Assembly (NCBI GenBank): GCA_964348825.1
Contig: CAYGDX010000002.1
Coordinates: forward strand, 195,013 to 259,012
DNA from: an uncultured Gammaproteobacteria bacterium
Lineage (GTDB): Bacteria > Patescibacteriota > Patescibacteriia > Veblenbacterales > UBA10138
Direction: 5' to 3'
Length of the DNA: 64,000 nt
The position numbers and the translations under genes are program-made. Position 1 is the first letter of the stretch, and each line of letters starts with the position of its first letter. This document shows positions 2,372-58,513 of this stretch, in pieces. The notes below the pieces were generated by a model that worked only from the letters and a program-made list of their open reading frames with translations, did not search any database and was not told the origin of the DNA.

Positions 2372-3469
2372 CTAAAGATCTAAAAGCACGGCCGCAATCC
2401 AAGGAAAGGCCACCGTAACATCACTTTGAATAATCTGATAGTAACTTTCAGTGGAAAGTTTATCCCAAGTAATTTTTTCCTTACCCCCCGCGCCAGAATA
2501 CGAACCGTAAGACATTGGCGAAGAGCCAATTTCAATAAACCCAGCCCAATCTCTAACTTTTGCTAATTTCAAATCATGTTTCAAAGATGGTACCACACAA
2601 ATCGGAAAATCAGCCGAAATGCCACCACCAAGTTGCAAAAAAGCAATTGGCGCAAGTTTGCTTTCTTTCATATACCAATCATACATCAAATGGAAATATT
2701 CCAATCCTGTTTTCATAATATTTCCATCTAACTTAACATCACCCTTTTTCTTATGTGGTCCATCATAAACATAACTAGAAAAAATATTACCCATTGTAGA
2801 ATCCTCAAAGCCTGGCACTATAATTGGGATATTTTTTTCAAAAGCCGCCAGCGTCCAACAATCAGCTGGATTAGCCTTAGAATCAGGCTTAATCAATTTT
2901 TCTTTAAACAGTCGGCGAAAATATTCATGTGGAAAATATCTTTCTTTCTTACTTTCCGCTTGCTGCCACATCTTTAATAAATGTGGTTCCATAATACGCA
3001 CGCTTTCGTCTTCTGGTAAAAATGTATCGGTAATTCGCCTGAGCCCCGCGTCCCTAAGTTCTGCTTCTTGTTTAGGAGTAAGCTCAGTATAACGAGGAAT
3101 GTAGGCATAGTGCGAATGAGCTACATAGCGGTAATACGATTCTTCGTGATTAGCGCCGGTGGCTGAAACTAAATGTACTTTGTTTTTGCGAATGAGTTCC
3201 GCCAGCATTACCCCAACTTGAAAAGAGCTTAGGGCGCCCGCTAAAGTTACAATTAATTTTCCTCCACTTTTTAGATGATTTTTTAACCACAAAGCCGCTT
3301 GCATAGTTGAGCCACCATTGCAATGCATCAGCGTTCTTTCGGCAAACTTACTAATCGGTGCCGGACTTTTTTTTATATTCTCACTCAAAGCACCGGCCGC
3401 TTTATTACCTTCAGATATAATGAATTTTCTTAACCCAGGCGAAAGTTTATTTAGTCTATTTTTTGACAT
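2372..3469 (-). CDS. Deoxyhypusine synthase family protein (DHS-like, NAD-dependent)
   Basis: 365 aa with the layout and motifs of deoxyhypusine/homospermidine synthase-like proteins: GGSTMQAALW and LQLGGGISADFPICVVP. Confidence 0.7.
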   Translation of the reverse strand: MSKNRLNKLSPGLRKFIISEGNKAAGALSENIKKSPAPISKFAERTLMHCNGGSTMQAALWLKNHLKSGGKLIVTLAGALSSFQVGVMLAELIRKNKVHLVSATGANHEESYYRYVAHSHYAYIPRYTELTPKQEAELRDAGLRRITDTFLPEDESVRIMEPHLLKMWQQAESKKERYFPHEYFRRLFKEKLIKPDSKANPADCWTLAAFEKNIPIIVPGFEDSTMGNIFSSYVYDGPHKKKGDVKLDGNIMKTGLEYFHLMYDWYMKESKLAPIAFLQLGGGISADFPICVVPSLKHDLKLAKVRDWAGFIEIGSSPMSYGSYSGAGGKEKITWDKLSTESYYQIIQSDVTVAFPWIAAVLLDL

Positions 3470-15549: not shown

Positions 15550-15600
15550 AGATTTTAGTTATTGGAATTTATTTCGGATTTCGGATTTAGAGTTTCGTAT
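15550..15600. repeat. Heptamer repeat tract (TCGGATT family)
   Basis: agattttagttattggaatttatttcggatttcggatttag. Confidence 0.7.
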
Positions 15601-18320: not shown

Positions 18321-19919
18321 TCAAGAGATATTGATCTTTGTATCTGACTCTAAGTTTACTAGAGCTAAAATTAACCAAAATAACATAAACATACTAGGGA
18401 TTGTCCACCAGTAGTGGTCAAACATAGCCGTTATTATTATAGCCACCAGCCAATAGCTACTAGTTACTTGCGTATTACTAAAAGTGACGAAGATCCAATG
18501 GCGAAGAACCAACGACCTAATACCTATCCACAACAACCAAATAAATATAATCAACCCCACAATCCCCAACTCGGTAAAGACTAATAAAAACATATTATGT
18601 ACTGGTTGATAAAAACGCGGGGAAAGATTAGGTTGAATTTTTTGTAACTCCACTGTGTAATTATCCATACCTGTGCCACGCCACCACACGCGCGCTAAAA
18701 TACTTTGACTATCTTTTACGCTTCCCACTCGCTCTTCAACCGATTGTTGCTCCAAACGACCACCACCAAAAATTCTGGTTTGTACGAGTGGATAATAAAC
18801 TGCGGATAGAATAATAAATACTGATGTTGTAATGATAAGTACATTACGCCATCTACTGCTGTCATTCCCGCGCCATTCGGCCTCGAGCTCATGGCCGAGA
18901 GGAAGGCGGGAATCCAGAAACAAAAATGAATCAGCTTTTTGAGTTTCTATTTGTTTCTGGATCCCGGATCCTCGTCCGGGATGACACCTGCTTTGCCACC
19001 ACCAAATTATTAAACTCACACCTAAAGCCAACCACGCCCCACGGGAAAAAGTAAAAAATAAACCAGCAAGTTGAATTATATACAGTGAGAATAAAATTAT
19101 TTTTTTTAAATTCGAATATCGAAATTCGAAATTCGAAAATTTTTGGTCATTGGGATTTATTTCGGATTTCGGATTTCGGATTTCGGATTTTTCTATGAAA
19201 TATAACCATATCGTTGCTAAACATGTAACCACTAGCAATCCCCCCAGCACATTGGGGTGCACTTGCCCACCATAAGCTCGTAACCAATTTTCACCACCTG
19301 ATAAAATAACTGAAGTGCCAGCTTGGGTTAATGAATGCGCCGCTACACCCAACCATTTATTCGCAAAAGTTGATTGGGTAAAAAATTGTACAATTCCCCA
19401 TAATGCTTGAATTGCTCCCGCCAGCGTGAGTGACCAAAAGATACCTAACAACTTTGGTTTAATAGTTTTAATTAACAACCACAATAAACCGCCTTCTAAT
19501 AATCTTGCATTCCACACCGCGGCCAGCACTTTGTCGCTTGACCAAATAATAGATAAAAATGATAAACACAGTAAAACTAAATAAATAATTTTGAAATTTG
19601 AGATTTGGGAATTATTTAGGATTTCGGATTTCGGATTTCGGATTTTTAAATCCTTAATCTCCCGCCAAATCATCGGCCACGACACTATTATCAATAATAA
19701 AAATATTATATCCCAACTATACAATGAGATCCTTCCATATTCCCAAATTCTCTCGACTCCGCTCGGGACCTGCGGCCGCCAAATATGTAGATCGCGAACA
19801 ATCCACCTCGTTTGCCAAGGGAGGAGAAAAATGAATAGATAAAATAACCAAACTAGTATTTTAAGCCAAGTTAATGTCATAACTATATTATGTGCTAGTG
19901 AGTCATATTTTACAAACAA
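18321..19919 (-). CDS. O-antigen ligase/polymerase-like polytopic membrane protein (Wzy_C-like), carrying three in-frame repeat insertions
   Basis: Many TM helices and FTFSRGAWLALGVSLIIWWW in a periplasmic loop. Two EIRNPKSEI segments are encoded by TCGGATT tracts. One GC-rich palindromic insert lies at 18860-18985. Confidence 0.5.
   Translation of the reverse strand: MFVKYDSLAHNIVMTLTWLKILVWLFYLFIFLLPWQTRWIVRDLHIWRPQVPSGVERIWEYGRISLYSWDIIFLLLIIVSWPMIWREIKDLKIRNPKSEILNNSQISNFKIIYLVLLCLSFLSIIWSSDKVLAAVWNARLLEGGLLWLLIKTIKPKLLGIFWSLTLAGAIQALWGIVQFFTQSTFANKWLGVAAHSLTQAGTSVILSGGENWLRAYGGQVHPNVLGGLLVVTCLATIWLYFIEKSEIRNPKSEINPNDQKFSNFEFRYSNLKKIILFSLYIIQLAGLFFTFSRGAWLALGVSLIIWWWQSRCHPGRGSGIQKQIETQKADSFLFLDSRLPLGHELEAEWRGNDSSRWRNVLIITTSVFIILSAVYYPLVQTRIFGGGRLEQQSVEERVGSVKDSQSILARVWWRGTGMDNYTVELQKIQPNLSPRFYQPVHNMFLLVFTELGIVGLIIFIWLLWIGIRSLVLRHWIFVTFSNTQVTSSYWLVAIIITAMFDHYWWTIPSMFMLFWLILALVNLESDTKINIS
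19101..19190. repeat. Heptamer-repeat element forming a long imperfect palindrome (cgaaattcgaaattcgaaa ... tttcggatttcggatttcgg). It lies inside the CDS in-frame.
   Basis: Sequence seen directly; translates to FEIRNPKSEINPNDQKFSNFEFRYSN. Confidence 0.7.
19592..19652. repeat. Heptamer-repeat tract (TCGGATT x3-4) inside the CDS in-frame
   Basis: ttatttaggatttcggatttcggatttcggatttttaaatcc translates to KDLKIRNPKSEILNNSQIS. Confidence 0.7.
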
Positions 19920-26702: not shown

Positions 26703-28838
26703 TTAAAAATAATCTTTTCCACTATCTGCCGACACATTTACAAACATTTCTTCGGGTAATTCACTTAAAAATCGCGACGGCACAACTTGTGATGTTTTAC
26801 CAAAAATTGTCCGCATACTTGCATAAGAACAATAAACATTCTCACGCGCGCGAGTAAGCGCCACATACACCAAACGCCTTTCTTCTTCTAATTCTTTTGG
26901 ATCACTAAGCGATGAGTTGTGCGGGAATAAACCTTCTTCCATTCCCACCACAAAAACGGTTTGAAATTCCAAACCTTTGGCGGCGTGTACCGTCATTAGA
27001 GTTACACCATTTTTTTTATCATCGGAGTTATCTAAATCCTGCCACAAAGAAATATCGGTTAAAAATTTAGTCAGCGCTTCTTTACCCTTCCCTTGCGCCC
27101 GCGCCTGCGACACACTTTTTAATTCGGAAATATTCTCGAGTCGCCTTTCGCCTACACTGGTACCATCATCTAATTCCCCGGTTAACCCACTATTTTTTGC
27201 CACCTCATCAATCAATTCCGCCACAGTTAATTCTGGTAATAATTTTTCCCACTTAGCAAACAAATCCACAAAACCAAGCAATCCTTTTTGCCTAGCGGGC
27301 GCTAAATTCAAACTTTCATCACGAGCCGCTTGGAGTAAAGAAATATTATTTATTTTAGCGCGATTCAAAACCGCTTCCACTGTGGTAAGCCCAACGCCAC
27401 GGGTTACACTCAAAATCGCTCGTTCAAAACTTATACTATCGCTTGGATTTTGCAAAAACCGTAGCCAAGCCAACATATCTTTTACCTCACGTCGTTCATA
27501 AAATTTTATTCCACCCACTAATTGATATGGCAACCCCGCTCTTAAACACGCTTCTTCCAGCGCCCGACTTTGCACATTAGTGCGATACAACACTGCAAAA
27601 TTATTTAAAGCCGCGCGTTCACCTTGCCATTTTTTAATTTTCATATAATCCGGTAAAAATTCTCGCACTTGAATTTTATCTTCATATTCCACCAAAGTTT
27701 CCACGGCTGGTAAAAACTCAACTTTTCGGATTTTGGATTTCGCTCGCCCGCCGATGAGGTGGGGATTTCGGATTTCCGTCAGCTTTATTATTTCCTCCAC
27801 TACAAATCTCGCCTCCGCAGTTTCGTCTTCAACTTGTATAATTTTAATTGGCTCACCCTCGTTATTATTAGTCCATAAAGTTTTGTCAGCTTTAATAGTT
27901 GCCCCCTTCATTATAGTATTACCAGCCGCTACAATAATTTTAGTGGAGCGATAATTTTGTTCTAATTTTATTACTTGCGCTTCCGGATAATCTTCTTTAA
28001 ATCGTAAAATGTTAGCTGAATTCGCCCCGCGCCAACCATAAATTGATTGCCAATCATCACCCACTACACATAAATTATGATGGTTAGTAGCAAGTAAACT
28101 AGTCCAAATATATTGCGCTTGATTTACATCTTGATACTCATCAACCAATAAATATTTAAAATTAGTTTGATATTTTTTAAGCACTTCTGGATTTTCTTGC
28201 CACACTCGCACCATCTGACCAATTAAATCATCAAAATCAAAGGCCTTATTTTTTACCAGCAACGCCTGATAACGTTCATAAATACGCGCTACATTTTCGG
28301 TAAAAAAATCATCCGCTACATCACGGGCATAATCCTGAGGCGACATTAAATCTGATTTAGCCCGCGAAATTGCATTTAAAATTGCGCCCGGTTGAATTTG
28401 TTTGATACTTAAACCAATTTCCCGTAAAGCCTCTTTAACTAATGATTTTTGATCGCCTTCATCATAAATTGTAAAATGTGGCGGATAATTTAAATATTTA
28501 GCTTCTTGCCTTAAGAAACGACAACTGACCGCGTGAAAAGTGCCGACTAATGGGCCATTTTTATCAATTGGTTTACCAAGTAGTGCACCAACTCGCGACT
28601 TCATTTCTTGTGCCGCTTTGTTGGTAAAAGTAACTGCTAAAATTTGACGGGGTTCAACTTTTTCATGCGCTATTAAATAAGCCAAACGATGAACCAAGGT
28701 TTTGGTTTTACCGCTACCCGCGCCAGCCAACACTAAAAGTGGGCCGCGGGTCGCAACTACAGCCTCGGCTTGGGGTAGGTTTAAATTGCTTAGTAATTTA
28801 TCTTTATTAATCATCGTGTTAACTATTATGTTTGACAA
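26703..28838 (-). CDS. pcrA: ATP-dependent DNA helicase, PcrA/UvrD family (SF1), with an in-frame repeat-derived insertion
   Basis: Motif I AGAGSGKTKTLVHR, motif II DEYQD, and motifs III-VI are present. The insertion TEIRNPHLIGGRAKSKIRK is encoded by 27718-27790. Confidence 0.85.
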   Translation of the reverse strand: MSNIIVNTMINKDKLLSNLNLPQAEAVVATRGPLLVLAGAGSGKTKTLVHRLAYLIAHEKVEPRQILAVTFTNKAAQEMKSRVGALLGKPIDKNGPLVGTFHAVSCRFLRQEAKYLNYPPHFTIYDEGDQKSLVKEALREIGLSIKQIQPGAILNAISRAKSDLMSPQDYARDVADDFFTENVARIYERYQALLVKNKAFDFDDLIGQMVRVWQENPEVLKKYQTNFKYLLVDEYQDVNQAQYIWTSLLATNHHNLCVVGDDWQSIYGWRGANSANILRFKEDYPEAQVIKLEQNYRSTKIIVAAGNTIMKGATIKADKTLWTNNNEGEPIKIIQVEDETAEARFVVEEIIKLTEIRNPHLIGGRAKSKIRKVEFLPAVETLVEYEDKIQVREFLPDYMKIKKWQGERAALNNFAVLYRTNVQSRALEEACLRAGLPYQLVGGIKFYERREVKDMLAWLRFLQNPSDSISFERAILSVTRGVGLTTVEAVLNRAKINNISLLQAARDESLNLAPARQKGLLGFVDLFAKWEKLLPELTVAELIDEVAKNSGLTGELDDGTSVGERRLENISELKSVSQARAQGKGKEALTKFLTDISLWQDLDNSDDKKNGVTLMTVHAAKGLEFQTVFVVGMEEGLFPHNSSLSDPKELEEERRLVYVALTRARENVYCSYASMRTIFGKTSQVVPSRFLSELPEEMFVNVSADSGKDYF
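27718..27790. repeat. Composite heptamer-repeat element with a GC-rich core, inside pcrA in-frame
   Basis: ttttcggattttggatttcgctcgcccgccgatgaggtggggatttcggatttccg. Confidence 0.7.
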
Positions 28839-39300: not shown

Positions 39301-39335
39301 CTTTCGGATTTCGATATTCGGATTTAGGATTTGAG
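39301..39335. repeat. Heptamer tract (TCGGATT family) adjacent to repeat copy 3
   Basis: ctttcggatttcgatattcggatttaggatttgag. Confidence 0.6.
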
Positions 39336-49997: not shown

Positions 49998-50369
49998 TCA
50001 CAAACCCAATATAATTTTGGTTTGTTTAATATCTTGCTCAATTTGTTTTTTTATATCTTCCAAATTAGTTGTGCGTATCACGTCGCGTAATTTTTGCACC
50101 ATTTCCACTTGTAAATTCTGTCCATATAGATCATCTGAAAAATCGAGTAAATAAACTTCTTGGCGTGGCTCGCCAGAAGCTTCTTGTTCTACACCAGATA
50201 CCAAAACTCCAGCATATTTTGTGTCGCCTAAAAAAACCCAAACTGCATAAATGCCAGTTTGGGCACGAAAGCTATCCTCAATTAATTTCAAATTAGCCGT
50301 AGGATAACCAATTTGTCTGCCCTCACCCTTACCCCGTATCACTCGGCCAGTTATTATTTCCTTAATCAT
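49998..50369 (-). CDS. Riboflavin kinase domain protein (monofunctional, no FAD synthetase domain)
   Basis: GRVIRGKGEGRQIGYPTANL ... pattern of the RibF C-terminal kinase domain. 123 aa. Confidence 0.65.
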   Translation of the reverse strand: MIKEIITGRVIRGKGEGRQIGYPTANLKLIEDSFRAQTGIYAVWVFLGDTKYAGVLVSGVEQEASGEPRQEVYLLDFSDDLYGQNLQVEMVQKLRDVIRTTNLEDIKKQIEQDIKQTKIILGL

Positions 50370-50994
50370 GGCGGCGCAAACTTAAATCATATTGAATATC
50401 TTCCAACTTTCGCAAATGTTGTTTAGCTTGATCAAATTTACTGCGCAAACTTCCAGTTAAATTCATAGCCGCAAGTTCCCCCACTGTTGCAGTTGCCACT
50501 TCTACTAAAATTTTGATTGTTTTTTTATCACCACCTGTCGCTTGCTTCACCGCATAACGTGCTAATTCTCCTAACAAATCAGAAATCGCTCCTAAATAAA
50601 CATCAGTTGGAATTTTATACCCCGTAACTGGCACGATTTTTTTAGTTTCTAAATAACTCACAAATAATTTAGCTTCCACATATTCTTCTAGCGCTGCTCG
50701 CCAACTGCCCAAGTATTCTATTTCCTCCACTTTTTTTAACACTGCCTTGCCATTTGTAAAAAATCCTTCTGATTTTTTAAGTAAAGTATTGGCTTCCACT
50801 AAATTATCGCGTTGCGCCGCAAAAATTGCCTGTTTAGCTAAAGCTTGAGCTTGATTGGCAAAATCAGATAATTGCCGCCTACCCGCCGCCGCTTTTTGAT
50901 AGGCCTTACCTAAATCATTTAAAAATTTTGTATTATTCATATGGTTAATATCACCAAGATACCACACTAACAACAAATTGCCAAATAAACTCAA
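50362..50994 (-). CDS. Hypothetical all-helical protein (translin-family-like?)
   Basis: 210-aa ORF overlapping the kinase gene by 8 nt; weak resemblance only. Confidence 0.35.
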   Translation of the reverse strand: MSLFGNLLLVWYLGDINHMNNTKFLNDLGKAYQKAAAGRRQLSDFANQAQALAKQAIFAAQRDNLVEANTLLKKSEGFFTNGKAVLKKVEEIEYLGSWRAALEEYVEAKLFVSYLETKKIVPVTGYKIPTDVYLGAISDLLGELARYAVKQATGGDKKTIKILVEVATATVGELAAMNLTGSLRSKFDQAKQHLRKLEDIQYDLSLRRHD

Positions 50995-57129: not shown

Positions 57130-58470
57130 TTAAAAACAAGTTGAGGACATCTTTGGTTTTTCAAAGTGCCATGGTTCAGAATTTAATTTACAAAAACCTT
57201 GCGCCCGCATAGCTTGAATAAGTAATTTCATACCCCTCACTTCTTCGCAAGCTGGTTTATTTTTTTTACAATTATCTTGTGATATTACTTGCGTGCCAGC
57301 GAAACCTGCCCACAAATCAACTGCTCGTCCAGTAGTATGTGGACAACTCTTTATTCCTTCTCTTAGTATACAGGTATCATGTTTACCTGTTTTAGGATTA
57401 CAACGTTGACTCCCGGGTGGATTCTGACAATTTTCTTTAATTAATTCTATTTGTTTAACTTCACTACGATAACCAGAGGCAATAATCAATTGAATATCAT
57501 CAGCCGCTAATTTGGCGGCTACTATTCTTAAATCGCTTAATAAACTTTTATCTACAGTATAAGATTTACCATTAACAATATTACGACCTTGTGCTAATAC
57601 TGGTTGCACACCAGAAAAATCAGCTATAGTAACAGTATCTGTTTCGGCTTCATCTTCTAAATTAAACTCCACTCGACGAATATCATCTATACCTTGTAGT
57701 GGTGGGAATTCAACTAATGCTGGATTTATTAAATTAAGCAAGGTATAAGAAATCAAAGCGAGCACCAAACCAATAATGGCGCTAAAAATAGCATCATTTG
57801 AATCACTAATTCTTTCCGCATTACCAGCCGCAATAATTCTTTTAAAACCACCCCAAGTAACCATCACTACAGCAATAACCGCTAACAACCCCACAAAAAA
57901 TTTAAAAAAAACACGTATATAATTGCCTAAAAATTTAGCGTCAACCGCAATCCCCTCGCCACTAGTAATTCTAAATTCTTTACCAGCAATTGTAATACTA
58001 CCTGGAATTGTTACTTGCGGTTTAAATTTTAGCCCGGTATCTGAACTAAGTGACATTTCATCCTCACCAAATGGTACACTATCATTAATTTCTCCACACA
58101 TATCATCTTGATGTAAAGTACAACTAACTTGCGAAGCTGAACAATTAGAATTAGTAATACGAATCCAATCATCAATCCCCCCGTACAAAGAAACTAAACT
58201 ATTATAATTACATTGACTAGTAGAATTAATCATTACACATGTAGAACTACCACCACCCACATTTATACTACTATAACCAGCGGCTTGAAAAGATTGCTCA
58301 CAAATACAAGAACAAGACAGCGCCAAAACTGGCTTGGCTGAAAATAAACCCAACACGAAAAATACCAAAGCTGTAATTATTATCAAACTTTGGAATTTGG
58401 TCCGCCAGTTGGCGGATGGGATTTGTGATTTTTTAGAAATTGACATATTTAAATCCGAAATCCGAAGCAC
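57130..58470 (-). CDS. Secreted Cys-rich protein, paralog 1: N-terminal signal/TM, Cys-rich ectodomain, conserved two-helix membrane hairpin, C-terminal M15 (VanY-like, LAS) peptidase domain
   Basis: Hairpin FFKFFVGLLAVIAVVMVTWGGFKRIIAAGNAERISDSNDAIFSAIIGLVLALISYTLLNLINPAL. M15 motifs SGYRS, CPHTTGRAVD and EPWHFE. The start may be the internal MSISKK (58446). Confidence 0.7.
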   Translation of the reverse strand: MLRISDLNMSISKKSQIPSANWRTKFQSLIIITALVFFVLGLFSAKPVLALSCSCICEQSFQAAGYSSINVGGGSSTCVMINSTSQCNYNSLVSLYGGIDDWIRITNSNCSASQVSCTLHQDDMCGEINDSVPFGEDEMSLSSDTGLKFKPQVTIPGSITIAGKEFRITSGEGIAVDAKFLGNYIRVFFKFFVGLLAVIAVVMVTWGGFKRIIAAGNAERISDSNDAIFSAIIGLVLALISYTLLNLINPALVEFPPLQGIDDIRRVEFNLEDEAETDTVTIADFSGVQPVLAQGRNIVNGKSYTVDKSLLSDLRIVAAKLAADDIQLIIASGYRSEVKQIELIKENCQNPPGSQRCNPKTGKHDTCILREGIKSCPHTTGRAVDLWAGFAGTQVISQDNCKKNKPACEEVRGMKLLIQAMRAQGFCKLNSEPWHFEKPKMSSTCF

Positions 58471-58513
58471 TAAATCCGAAAATTTCGTATTTCGAATTTC
58501 GATATTCGGATTT
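58449..58513. repeat. Heptamer element (AATCCGA/TCGGATT) forming an imperfect palindrome at the 5' end of the paralog-1 gene
   Basis: aaatccgaaatccgaagcactaaatccgaaaatttcgtatttcgaatttcgatattcggattttt. Confidence 0.65.

Follow-up and report, generated by a model that had tools for sequence, protein, structure and literature searches.

Inverted hairpin repeats of the Neisseria Transformation Sequence type carried in frame within a Wzy_C-family gene of a Patescibacteria contig

As part of an analysis of a 64,000-nucleotide stretch of contig CAYGDX010000002.1 (assembly GCA_964348825.1; positions 195,013 to 259,012, hereafter the window), which comes from an uncultured bacterium placed in the Patescibacteriota, we investigated a GC-rich module that lies inside a gene encoding an O-antigen-ligase-like membrane protein. 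The module contains a known hairpin repeat, of the Neisseria Transformation Sequence (NTS)/Ssn-related motif (SRM) and dRS3 type, as two copies in inverted orientation, together with a spacer and a further 30-nt repeat nested in one of the hairpins; it is not a series of three equivalent palindromes. We consider it probable that the module belongs to a widespread family of hairpin-forming DNA repeats, as an inverted NTS/SRM pair around a short AT-rich spacer, and that it is passively carried in frame by its host gene. The evidence consists of the identity of the motif, its repetition in multiple phyla, the covariation of its stems, its variable presence in orthologs, its translation in frame and the low structural confidence of the translated segment. 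The repeat is of a known kind; its location is unusual, in that it is found in a new phylum, within a gene, and in frame.

The hairpin corresponds to the NTS, CGTCATTCCCGCGMAVGCGGGAATCYRG, which contains the classical 20-bp dRS3 sequence ATTCCC-N8-GGGAAT and has been generalised as the SRM (Chenal et al. 2025, Nat Commun 16:2388, PMC11893778). According to the same study, 2% of NTS in N. meningitidis are inside genes. One hairpin of the module (unit 1) agrees with the NTS consensus at all positions except the first base, and its loop is interrupted by the 30-nt insert; it fails the degenerate SRM motif on loop length alone, due to this insert. Within the window, the degenerate motif as published, HGTCWYN(0-2)YYVSBRHN(0-5)WNVSBRGN(0-2)RNCYNB, is matched by the other hairpin (unit 2) alone, where 0.037 matches are expected. 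Both units keep the GTC that is 5′ of the palindrome and the C that is 3′ of it, and these positions were reported to matter most to the nuclease SsnA, the former for its cleavage and the latter for its binding (PMC11893778). With regard to dRS3 ends, unit 1 has ATTCCC...GGGAAT with a 38-nt interior, and unit 2 has ATCCCG...CGGGAT. The middle hairpin is formed jointly by the spacer ends AAACAAA/TTTGTTT and the unit ends ATCCAG/CTGGAT.

The initial annotation, made from the letters alone, had described a GC-rich, in-frame segment made up of three palindromes, and its coordinates, the fold statistics and the reading frame all bear this description out: the three palindromes are present within 18860-18985, and the 532-residue open reading frame (ORF) stays open across the module and translates to the peptide that had been quoted. 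The predicted fold of positions 18855-18990 is a four-way junction, in which a closing stem (GTCAT/ATGAC) is joined to three hairpins. Folded as RNA, this segment has an energy of −61.3 kcal/mol on the + strand (z = −6.3) and −62.8 kcal/mol on the − strand (z = −6.5), a stability that no dinucleotide shuffle out of 200 attains, and folding with DNA parameters gives z = −5.8 and −6.8. The pattern of the middle palindrome matches once in the window and never in 100 shuffles, and the full inverted-pair pattern also matches once, versus never in 300 dinucleotide shuffles. The hairpin units have a G+C content of 63-64% (profile across the module 0.64 / 0.23 / 0.63), versus 37% for both the remainder of the gene and the window overall.

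To enumerate related modules, we scanned one genome per species with the pattern GTCATYCC-N(8-38)-GGRATCCAG-N(15-45)-CTGGATYCC, which matched at least 120 loci in many phyla. The listed loci include Alpha-, Beta- and Gammaproteobacteria, Dehalococcoidia, Nitrospirae, Planctomycetota, Patescibacteria and Prevotella, as well as several cultured isolates, and one module was found in a metagenome-assembled genome of the Rickettsiaceae (L101). Complete modules are present at 89 of the 120 listed loci, giving 99 modules of 69-132 nt, whose spacers are 15-45 nt long (a range set by the pattern) and unrelated in sequence. The arm of unit 1 recurs with a 1-nt difference in two unrelated contigs, L123 and L125, whose G+C contents are 50% and 61%. 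We extracted 60 distinct 27-nt units from the 120 loci and found that 97.9% of the cells in their stems pair. Double changes occupy 46 cells, as compared with 12.2 in shuffles (0 of 500 shuffles reach the observed value), and compensatory changes occur at four of the eight stem pairs.

The covarying stems and the very stable predicted RNA fold on both strands could further suggest that the module is a structured RNA, within the mRNA or an antisense transcript, that serves as an RNase III site, as a translational pause aiding membrane insertion, or as a small RNA; indeed, other bacterial MITEs, such as Correia and ERIC, are processed by RNases. However, the module is symmetric, within one gene family some copies point the same way as the host gene and others the opposite way, and most copies in other genomes appear to be outside long ORFs and in unrelated contexts. 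Furthermore, SsnA, a GIY-YIG nuclease of 94 amino acids, binds and cuts the hairpin as single-stranded DNA only, and not as RNA (PMC11893778). Searches against Rfam, both at gathering thresholds and at E ≤ 10 over positions 18700-19750, yielded only tRNAs elsewhere and chance matches to miRNA-like hairpins. We therefore regard an RNA element as quite improbable. The coordinates of the module, its parts and its host gene are given in Table 1.

Table 1. Positions in the window of the module, its component parts and the gene that contains it
Feature	Coordinates	Strand	Description
Whole module	18861..18985	.	125 nt; GTCAT-hairpin-ATCCAG, spacer, CTGGAT-hairpin-ATGAC; codes for host residues 312-353
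SRM/NTS hairpin unit 1	18860..18917	+	T-GTCATTCCCGCG-[30-nt insert]-AAG-GCGGGAATCCAG
Nested 30-nt palindromic repeat	18873..18902	.	CCATTCGGCCTCGAGCTCATGGCCGAGAGG; in the loop of unit 1; carries XhoI and SacI sites
AT-rich spacer	18918..18956	.	39 nt, 23% G+C; equivalent to the RS of dRS3-RS-dRS3
SRM hairpin unit 2	18957..18986	-	TGTCATCCCGGACGAGGATCCGGGATCCAG; fits the published degenerate SRM motif
Host gene	18321..19919	-	532-aa Wzy_C/WaaL-like membrane glycosyltransferase with 12 transmembrane helices (TM); module in the TM8-TM9 loop

Comparison with orthologous proteins supports the earlier proposal of a miniature palindromic element that is tolerated in a variable loop. In our alignment of orthologs (A1), most of them have a loop of approximately 10 residues where the window protein has 54, and the insert is absent from them. 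The closest ortholog, P0002, is encoded on an independently assembled groundwater contig (L001), and a related module is present at the same site, with both junctions in common with the window. In this module of L001, near-identity with the window covers the left hairpin and one half of the spacer, while the right hairpin is of a different stem variant (TCCGGC) and is without the inner palindrome; unit 2 has its near-identical counterpart at the same gene position. A second module of L001 is located in the TM2-TM3 loop, in the opposite orientation, and one of its arms (L001 1704-1760) is identical at 57 of 57 nt to window positions 18861-18917, i.e. to unit 1 minus the leading T at 18860. SRM-derived peptides are found in six of the best 120 homologs, where they occupy three loops: TM2-TM3 (P0002, P0007 and P0013), TM6-TM7 (P0051) and TM8-TM9 (P0001, P0002 and P0050). 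The comparison with L001 shows that the element is repeated and that parts of it move or recombine.

In the same loops (A1 columns ~401-445 and 101-160), we also noticed different repeat-derived peptides in P0003, P0004, P0005, P0016, P0017 and P0022, examples of which are VIARSEATKQSH...ARND and CHCEESRQAGRRGNL...LRFARND. Judging from the peptides alone, these appear to derive from hairpins that are likewise bounded by GTCAT...ATGAC and have other stems (GTCATTGCGAG...CTCGCAATGAC). If this is true, a set of related hairpin families colonises these loops of the orthologs.

The recurrence of both junctions also bears on the question, raised in the initial annotation, of whether the module is an artefact of assembly or cloning, or a contamination. 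All that speaks for this is that common cloning sites are clustered in the module and that its G+C content is unlike that of the gene around it. Since both junctions, together with the left half of the module, recur in a contig that was independently assembled from another sample, and since the hairpin units and the 30-nt unit are found in hundreds of unrelated contigs, including isolate genomes, the probability of an artefact is negligible. The density of 6-bp palindromes had been called striking, but it is ordinary: the module has four where 2.2 would be expected for 126 nt, and counts elsewhere in the window go up to 11. The nested palindromes give rise to the XhoI, SacI and BamHI sites as a side effect. 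The idea that the clustered restriction sites point to a vector was therefore rejected, on the grounds of both the ordinary hexamer count and the junctions shared with L001.

The host protein matches the Pfam family Wzy_C (O-antigen ligase family, E = 9.9e-10), in a match that the insert breaks in two, and its best match in the PDB is the WaaL ligase 7TPG. Its nearest homologs are Patescibacteria proteins, typically of 420-460 residues. An AF2 model based on 22 homologs has 12 long helices, and the insert is modelled with a pLDDT of 45-57 between two confident helices (residues 293-312 and 353-374). In WaaL-type enzymes, the conserved residues are all on the outer face, and there is a long outer loop near the C-terminus (PMC10920833). 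In the window protein, the conserved loop residues 375-442 come directly after TM9, and R382, R397 and H441 are invariant in A1. Because this conserved outer loop directly follows TM9, the topology predicts that the preceding TM8-TM9 loop, which holds the insert, is most likely cytoplasmic, and not periplasmic as had been assumed at first.

The low confidence of the modelled insert also argues against the possibility that it is an adaptive protein segment, with selection acting on the peptide of a new cytoplasmic loop. The ORF is intact, and the window protein shares the N-terminal third of its insert (HPGRGSGIQKQIET) with its closest ortholog, as might be expected of such a segment. However, both substitutions in this shared part are non-synonymous and fall at unpaired positions, the same DNA in reverse orientation gives rise to an unrelated peptide in the ortholog's other loop, unrelated repeat-derived peptides are found at the same place in other homologs, and most orthologs do without the insert altogether. 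Selection on the peptide is thus a very remote prospect, and we infer that the insert peptide itself has no function.

Passive carriage in frame is compatible with the reading frames of the 99 modules from other genomes, in which usually two to four of the six frames are open. In-frame survival therefore needs no special coding, and approximately one-sixth of insertions would be tolerated. A fixed rule for the length of in-frame copies was considered and dropped, since the lengths of the 99 modules are spread over all residues modulo 3. With regard to individual examples, in-frame SRM pairs were observed in the tRNA-guanine transglycosylase (tgt) gene of a member of the Parcubacteria (L009 6951-7037), in a gene for a 673-residue multi-pass membrane protein in a metagenome-assembled genome of 32% G+C (L112 3115-3184), and between the domains of a Nitrospirae protein resembling lytic transglycosylases (Slt-like; L049 2826-2894).

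How such a module could spread is suggested by the association of its hairpins with ssn genes, which encode single-domain GIY-YIG proteins (cd10448) and are often flanked by SRM hairpins (PMC11893778). On the Novosphingobium plasmid pNL2, a GIY-YIG gene lies between inverted hairpins in the same layout as the module, and L122 contains a hairpin-GIY-YIG gene-hairpin unit with a different stem variant. Two low-G+C metagenome contigs, L153 and L132, have ssn homologs within 0.7 kb of NTS units, which include the variant bearing the 30-nt repeat. The NTS units near ssn in L153 are inverted pairs, and in both L153 and L155 the ssn gene is located beside these pairs, not between them. Among the best 120 of at least 7,993 matches, Ssn homologs approximately 70% identical to the L153 protein are found in Patescibacteria, namely in Doudnabacteria, Wildermuthbacteria and a record labelled ‘Patescibacteria group’. 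Many of the genes for Ssn-family GIY-YIG proteins of ~95 residues are on very short contigs (0.5-1.5 kb), which is expected if the gene and its flanking hairpins occur in multiple copies and break assemblies.

The layout of the module could accordingly be viewed as that of an SRM-ssn-SRM element whose gene has been replaced by a spacer. Its spread would proceed via single-stranded hairpin DNA and an Ssn-type nuclease, or a dRS3-specific recombinase, that is presumably encoded elsewhere in the genome. The module would have entered the DNA for the short and variable TM8-TM9 loop in an ancestor common to at least one related Patescibacteria lineage. Its survival would then be due to a net length that preserves the frame, to the absence of stop codons from the frame that is used, and to a loop that can take approximately 42 extra, probably disordered residues. 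Later changes would account for the hairpin arm that differs between the relatives, for the identical arm elsewhere in the relative's gene, and for the 30-nt repeat in one loop.

Several observations call parts of this explanation into question. Further copies of the module, for which the initial annotation had proposed to look, do exist in other genomes, in other contexts and both orientations, but there is no second copy in the 64-kb window, so that the window is not visibly from an SRM-rich genome. Unit 1, with its interior of 38 nt, is outside the strict definitions of both SRM and dRS3. No direct repeat that would represent a target-site duplication is present at 102 module flanks (which have YY before the module and RR after it, often prolonging the outer stem), nor does any gene recur beside the modules among the 120 genome loci; given these two results, transposition as such is not demonstrated. 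Within the window, an Ssn homolog was detected neither with a profile of 120 homologs (nothing at E ≤ 10) nor with tblastn (only E > 1), and a Pfam scan of 30 ORFs yielded no transposase or recombinase, including Y1_Tnp. A mobilising enzyme for the window copy is something we infer, and cleavage of these variants by Ssn is a prediction. Finally, the differences between the window and L001 could result from recombination or gene conversion instead of mobility.

Recombination is also at the centre of another explanation, in which the module is kept because it has a nucleic-acid role for the host: like the NIME arrays of Neisseria, it would be a site where Ssn cuts single-stranded DNA that is incoming or being replicated, or where a dRS3-specific recombinase acts, and it would raise or limit recombination and form a hot spot that diversifies a gene for a surface-glycan enzyme. 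In Neisseria, both NTS and dRS3 cluster beside genes for surface proteins (PMC11893778, PMC1797815), and SsnA shifts the transformation frequency of NTS-bearing DNA approximately 5-fold (PMC11893778). The host gene encodes a surface-polysaccharide enzyme, three loops of the Wzy_C family repeatedly carry such repeats, and close relatives have different hairpin arms there. Furthermore, the identity of the host gene to its L001 ortholog is strongly mosaic. The DNA of the window gene (18321-19919) is 77% identical overall to that of L001 1560-3011, with stretches of 60/60 identical positions alternating with stretches of ~50% identity and indels, a pattern that suggests, as far as sequence comparison goes, recombination within the gene. 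However, mosaic identity is possible without repeats, there is a single pair and no array, the 64-kb window has no ssn gene, and housekeeping genes, among them tgt, have in-frame copies as well; any benefit to the host is purely conjectural. We consider this role improbable.

The 30-nt palindrome in the loop of unit 1 belongs to a repeat family separate from NTS/SRM. Its exact 23-nt core is present in at least 120 metagenome contigs with G+C contents of 30-62%. Of 115 contexts, 100 have CCA at its left border and 107 have GAGG at its right border. In 11 of the 120 listed contexts, the unit is at the same position in an NTS loop, and the stems of these hairpins vary with compensatory changes; in the remaining contexts, it is in other hairpins or stacked inside its own copies, in a left-left-right-right order. 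Contigs with the identical palindrome CCATTCGGCCTCGAGCTCATGGCCGAGAGG include L131, L141, L168, L132, L153, L162, L166 and L169, among others, and no gene recurs beside it among the 120 listed metagenome loci. A search of protein databases with the translated module in both orientations returned five short, spurious ORFs and missed the host protein itself; here, too, the hairpin bearing the 30-nt unit was seen to recur. The distribution of the unit suggests insertion or templating at hairpin tips.

A bolder combination of these ideas is that SRM pairs are true non-autonomous mobile elements that colonise coding sequences of small Patescibacteria genomes, and that CCATTCGGCCTCGAGCTCATGGCCGAGAGG represents a micro-element, so far overlooked, for which DNA hairpin tips are the specific target of copying. 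We regard this as rather unlikely. If SRM pairs are indeed mobile in this way, they represent the same phenomenon as the palindromic elements of Rickettsia, and Ssn is a candidate enzyme for palindromes of this kind in coding sequences. If the 30-nt element is indeed copied into tips, an insertion or templating mechanism that targets hairpin tips would be at work that has not been described.

Except for specific differences, the module closely resembles NTS/SRM in primary sequence (GTCAT-TCCCGCG..CGCGGGA-ATCCAG and the CCCGGA stem variant), in its hairpin with covarying stems, in the GTC and C flanks that are kept, and in its very wide phylogenetic spread. Unlike NTS/SRM as published, the module is inside a coding sequence and in Patescibacteria, a group that is absent from the published study (PMC11893778). 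It is also one isolated pair in 64 kb instead of a member of a high-copy family, with no ssn gene nearby, and one of its units has a foreign palindrome of 30 nt in its loop. NIMEs, which have the structure dRS3-RS-dRS3 and form intergenic arrays with a wave in G+C content (Bentley et al. 2007, PMC1797815), are similar in that two inverted dRS3-type repeats flank a short spacer of lower G+C (39 nt, versus ~19-214 bp for the RS of NIMEs), with the same G+C wave, and in that neighbouring copies differ as if shuffled by recombination. However, NIMEs are described as specific to Neisseria, whereas the module is a lone intragenic unit in another phylum, and only unit 1 keeps the ATTCCC/GGGAAT ends, around an interior of 38 nt instead of 8.

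The Rickettsia palindromic elements (RPEs; PMC10969869) resemble the module in layout: they, too, are palindromic elements of ~100-150 bp that are in frame in unrelated conserved genes, they add a peptide that is compatible with the protein fold, and they are recurrently inserted into genes in a small-genome lineage. In contrast to RPEs, the host is not Rickettsia, and the ends of the module are SRM-type hairpin units instead of simple terminal inverted repeats. REP doublets (REPIN/BIME) likewise pair two inverted hairpin-forming units across a short linker and can hold the nuclease gene between them, and their proposed mobiliser (RAYT) is also a small nuclease that acts on hairpins of single-stranded DNA. 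On the other hand, the 5′ bases are GTCA in the module and GTAG in REP, the associated enzyme is of the GIY-YIG type (Ssn) and not an HUH/Y1 transposase (RAYT), and REP sequences are lineage-specific, whereas the motif of the module is common across phyla. Lastly, terminal inverted units are present as in a classical MITE, but the 102 flanks are without a target-site duplication.

These results have consequences for annotation. What looked like an artefactual GC island is a known and mechanistically tractable repeat, of the type that is a substrate for the Ssn single-strand nuclease, and its recognition helps to annotate the peptides VIPAKAGIQ, LDSRLRGND and WIPAFAGMT that recur in metagenomic proteins. 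The reach of NTS/SRM is extended to Patescibacteria and to the interior of conserved genes, where the repeats form loops of 25-45 residues in membrane enzymes and are found even in tRNA-guanine transglycosylase. Given the parallel with RPEs, small genomes, hairpin repeats and the growth of protein loops may be generally linked, and the 30-nt hairpin within a hairpin could indicate a new insertion mechanism. Caution is also advisable, in that such inserts inflate or distort protein alignments, domain matches (as in the Wzy_C match that was split in two) and structure predictions.

The window also contains a second dispersed repeat family, which consists of arrays of the heptamers ATTTCGG/ATTTCGA that form AT-rich hairpins, with 15 matches versus 0.19 expected. 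The arrays are at 15571-15595, 19108-19190, 19596-19660, 27723-27740, 39308-39332 and 58451-58513, and their arms pair, through G:T/G:U, on the + strand only. Two copies are in frame in the same Wzy_C gene, where they encode the peptides ...IRNPKSEI... and ...EIRNPKSEINP...FSNFEFRYSN in the TM2-TM3 and TM6-TM7 loops; the orthologs carry other low-complexity, repeat-derived peptides in these loops. Elsewhere in the window, there are genes for a homolog of deoxyhypusine synthase (2375-3469, − strand; E = 1.8e-29) and a translin-family protein (50365-50994, − strand; E = 2.1e-20), two families that are better known from archaea and eukaryotes.

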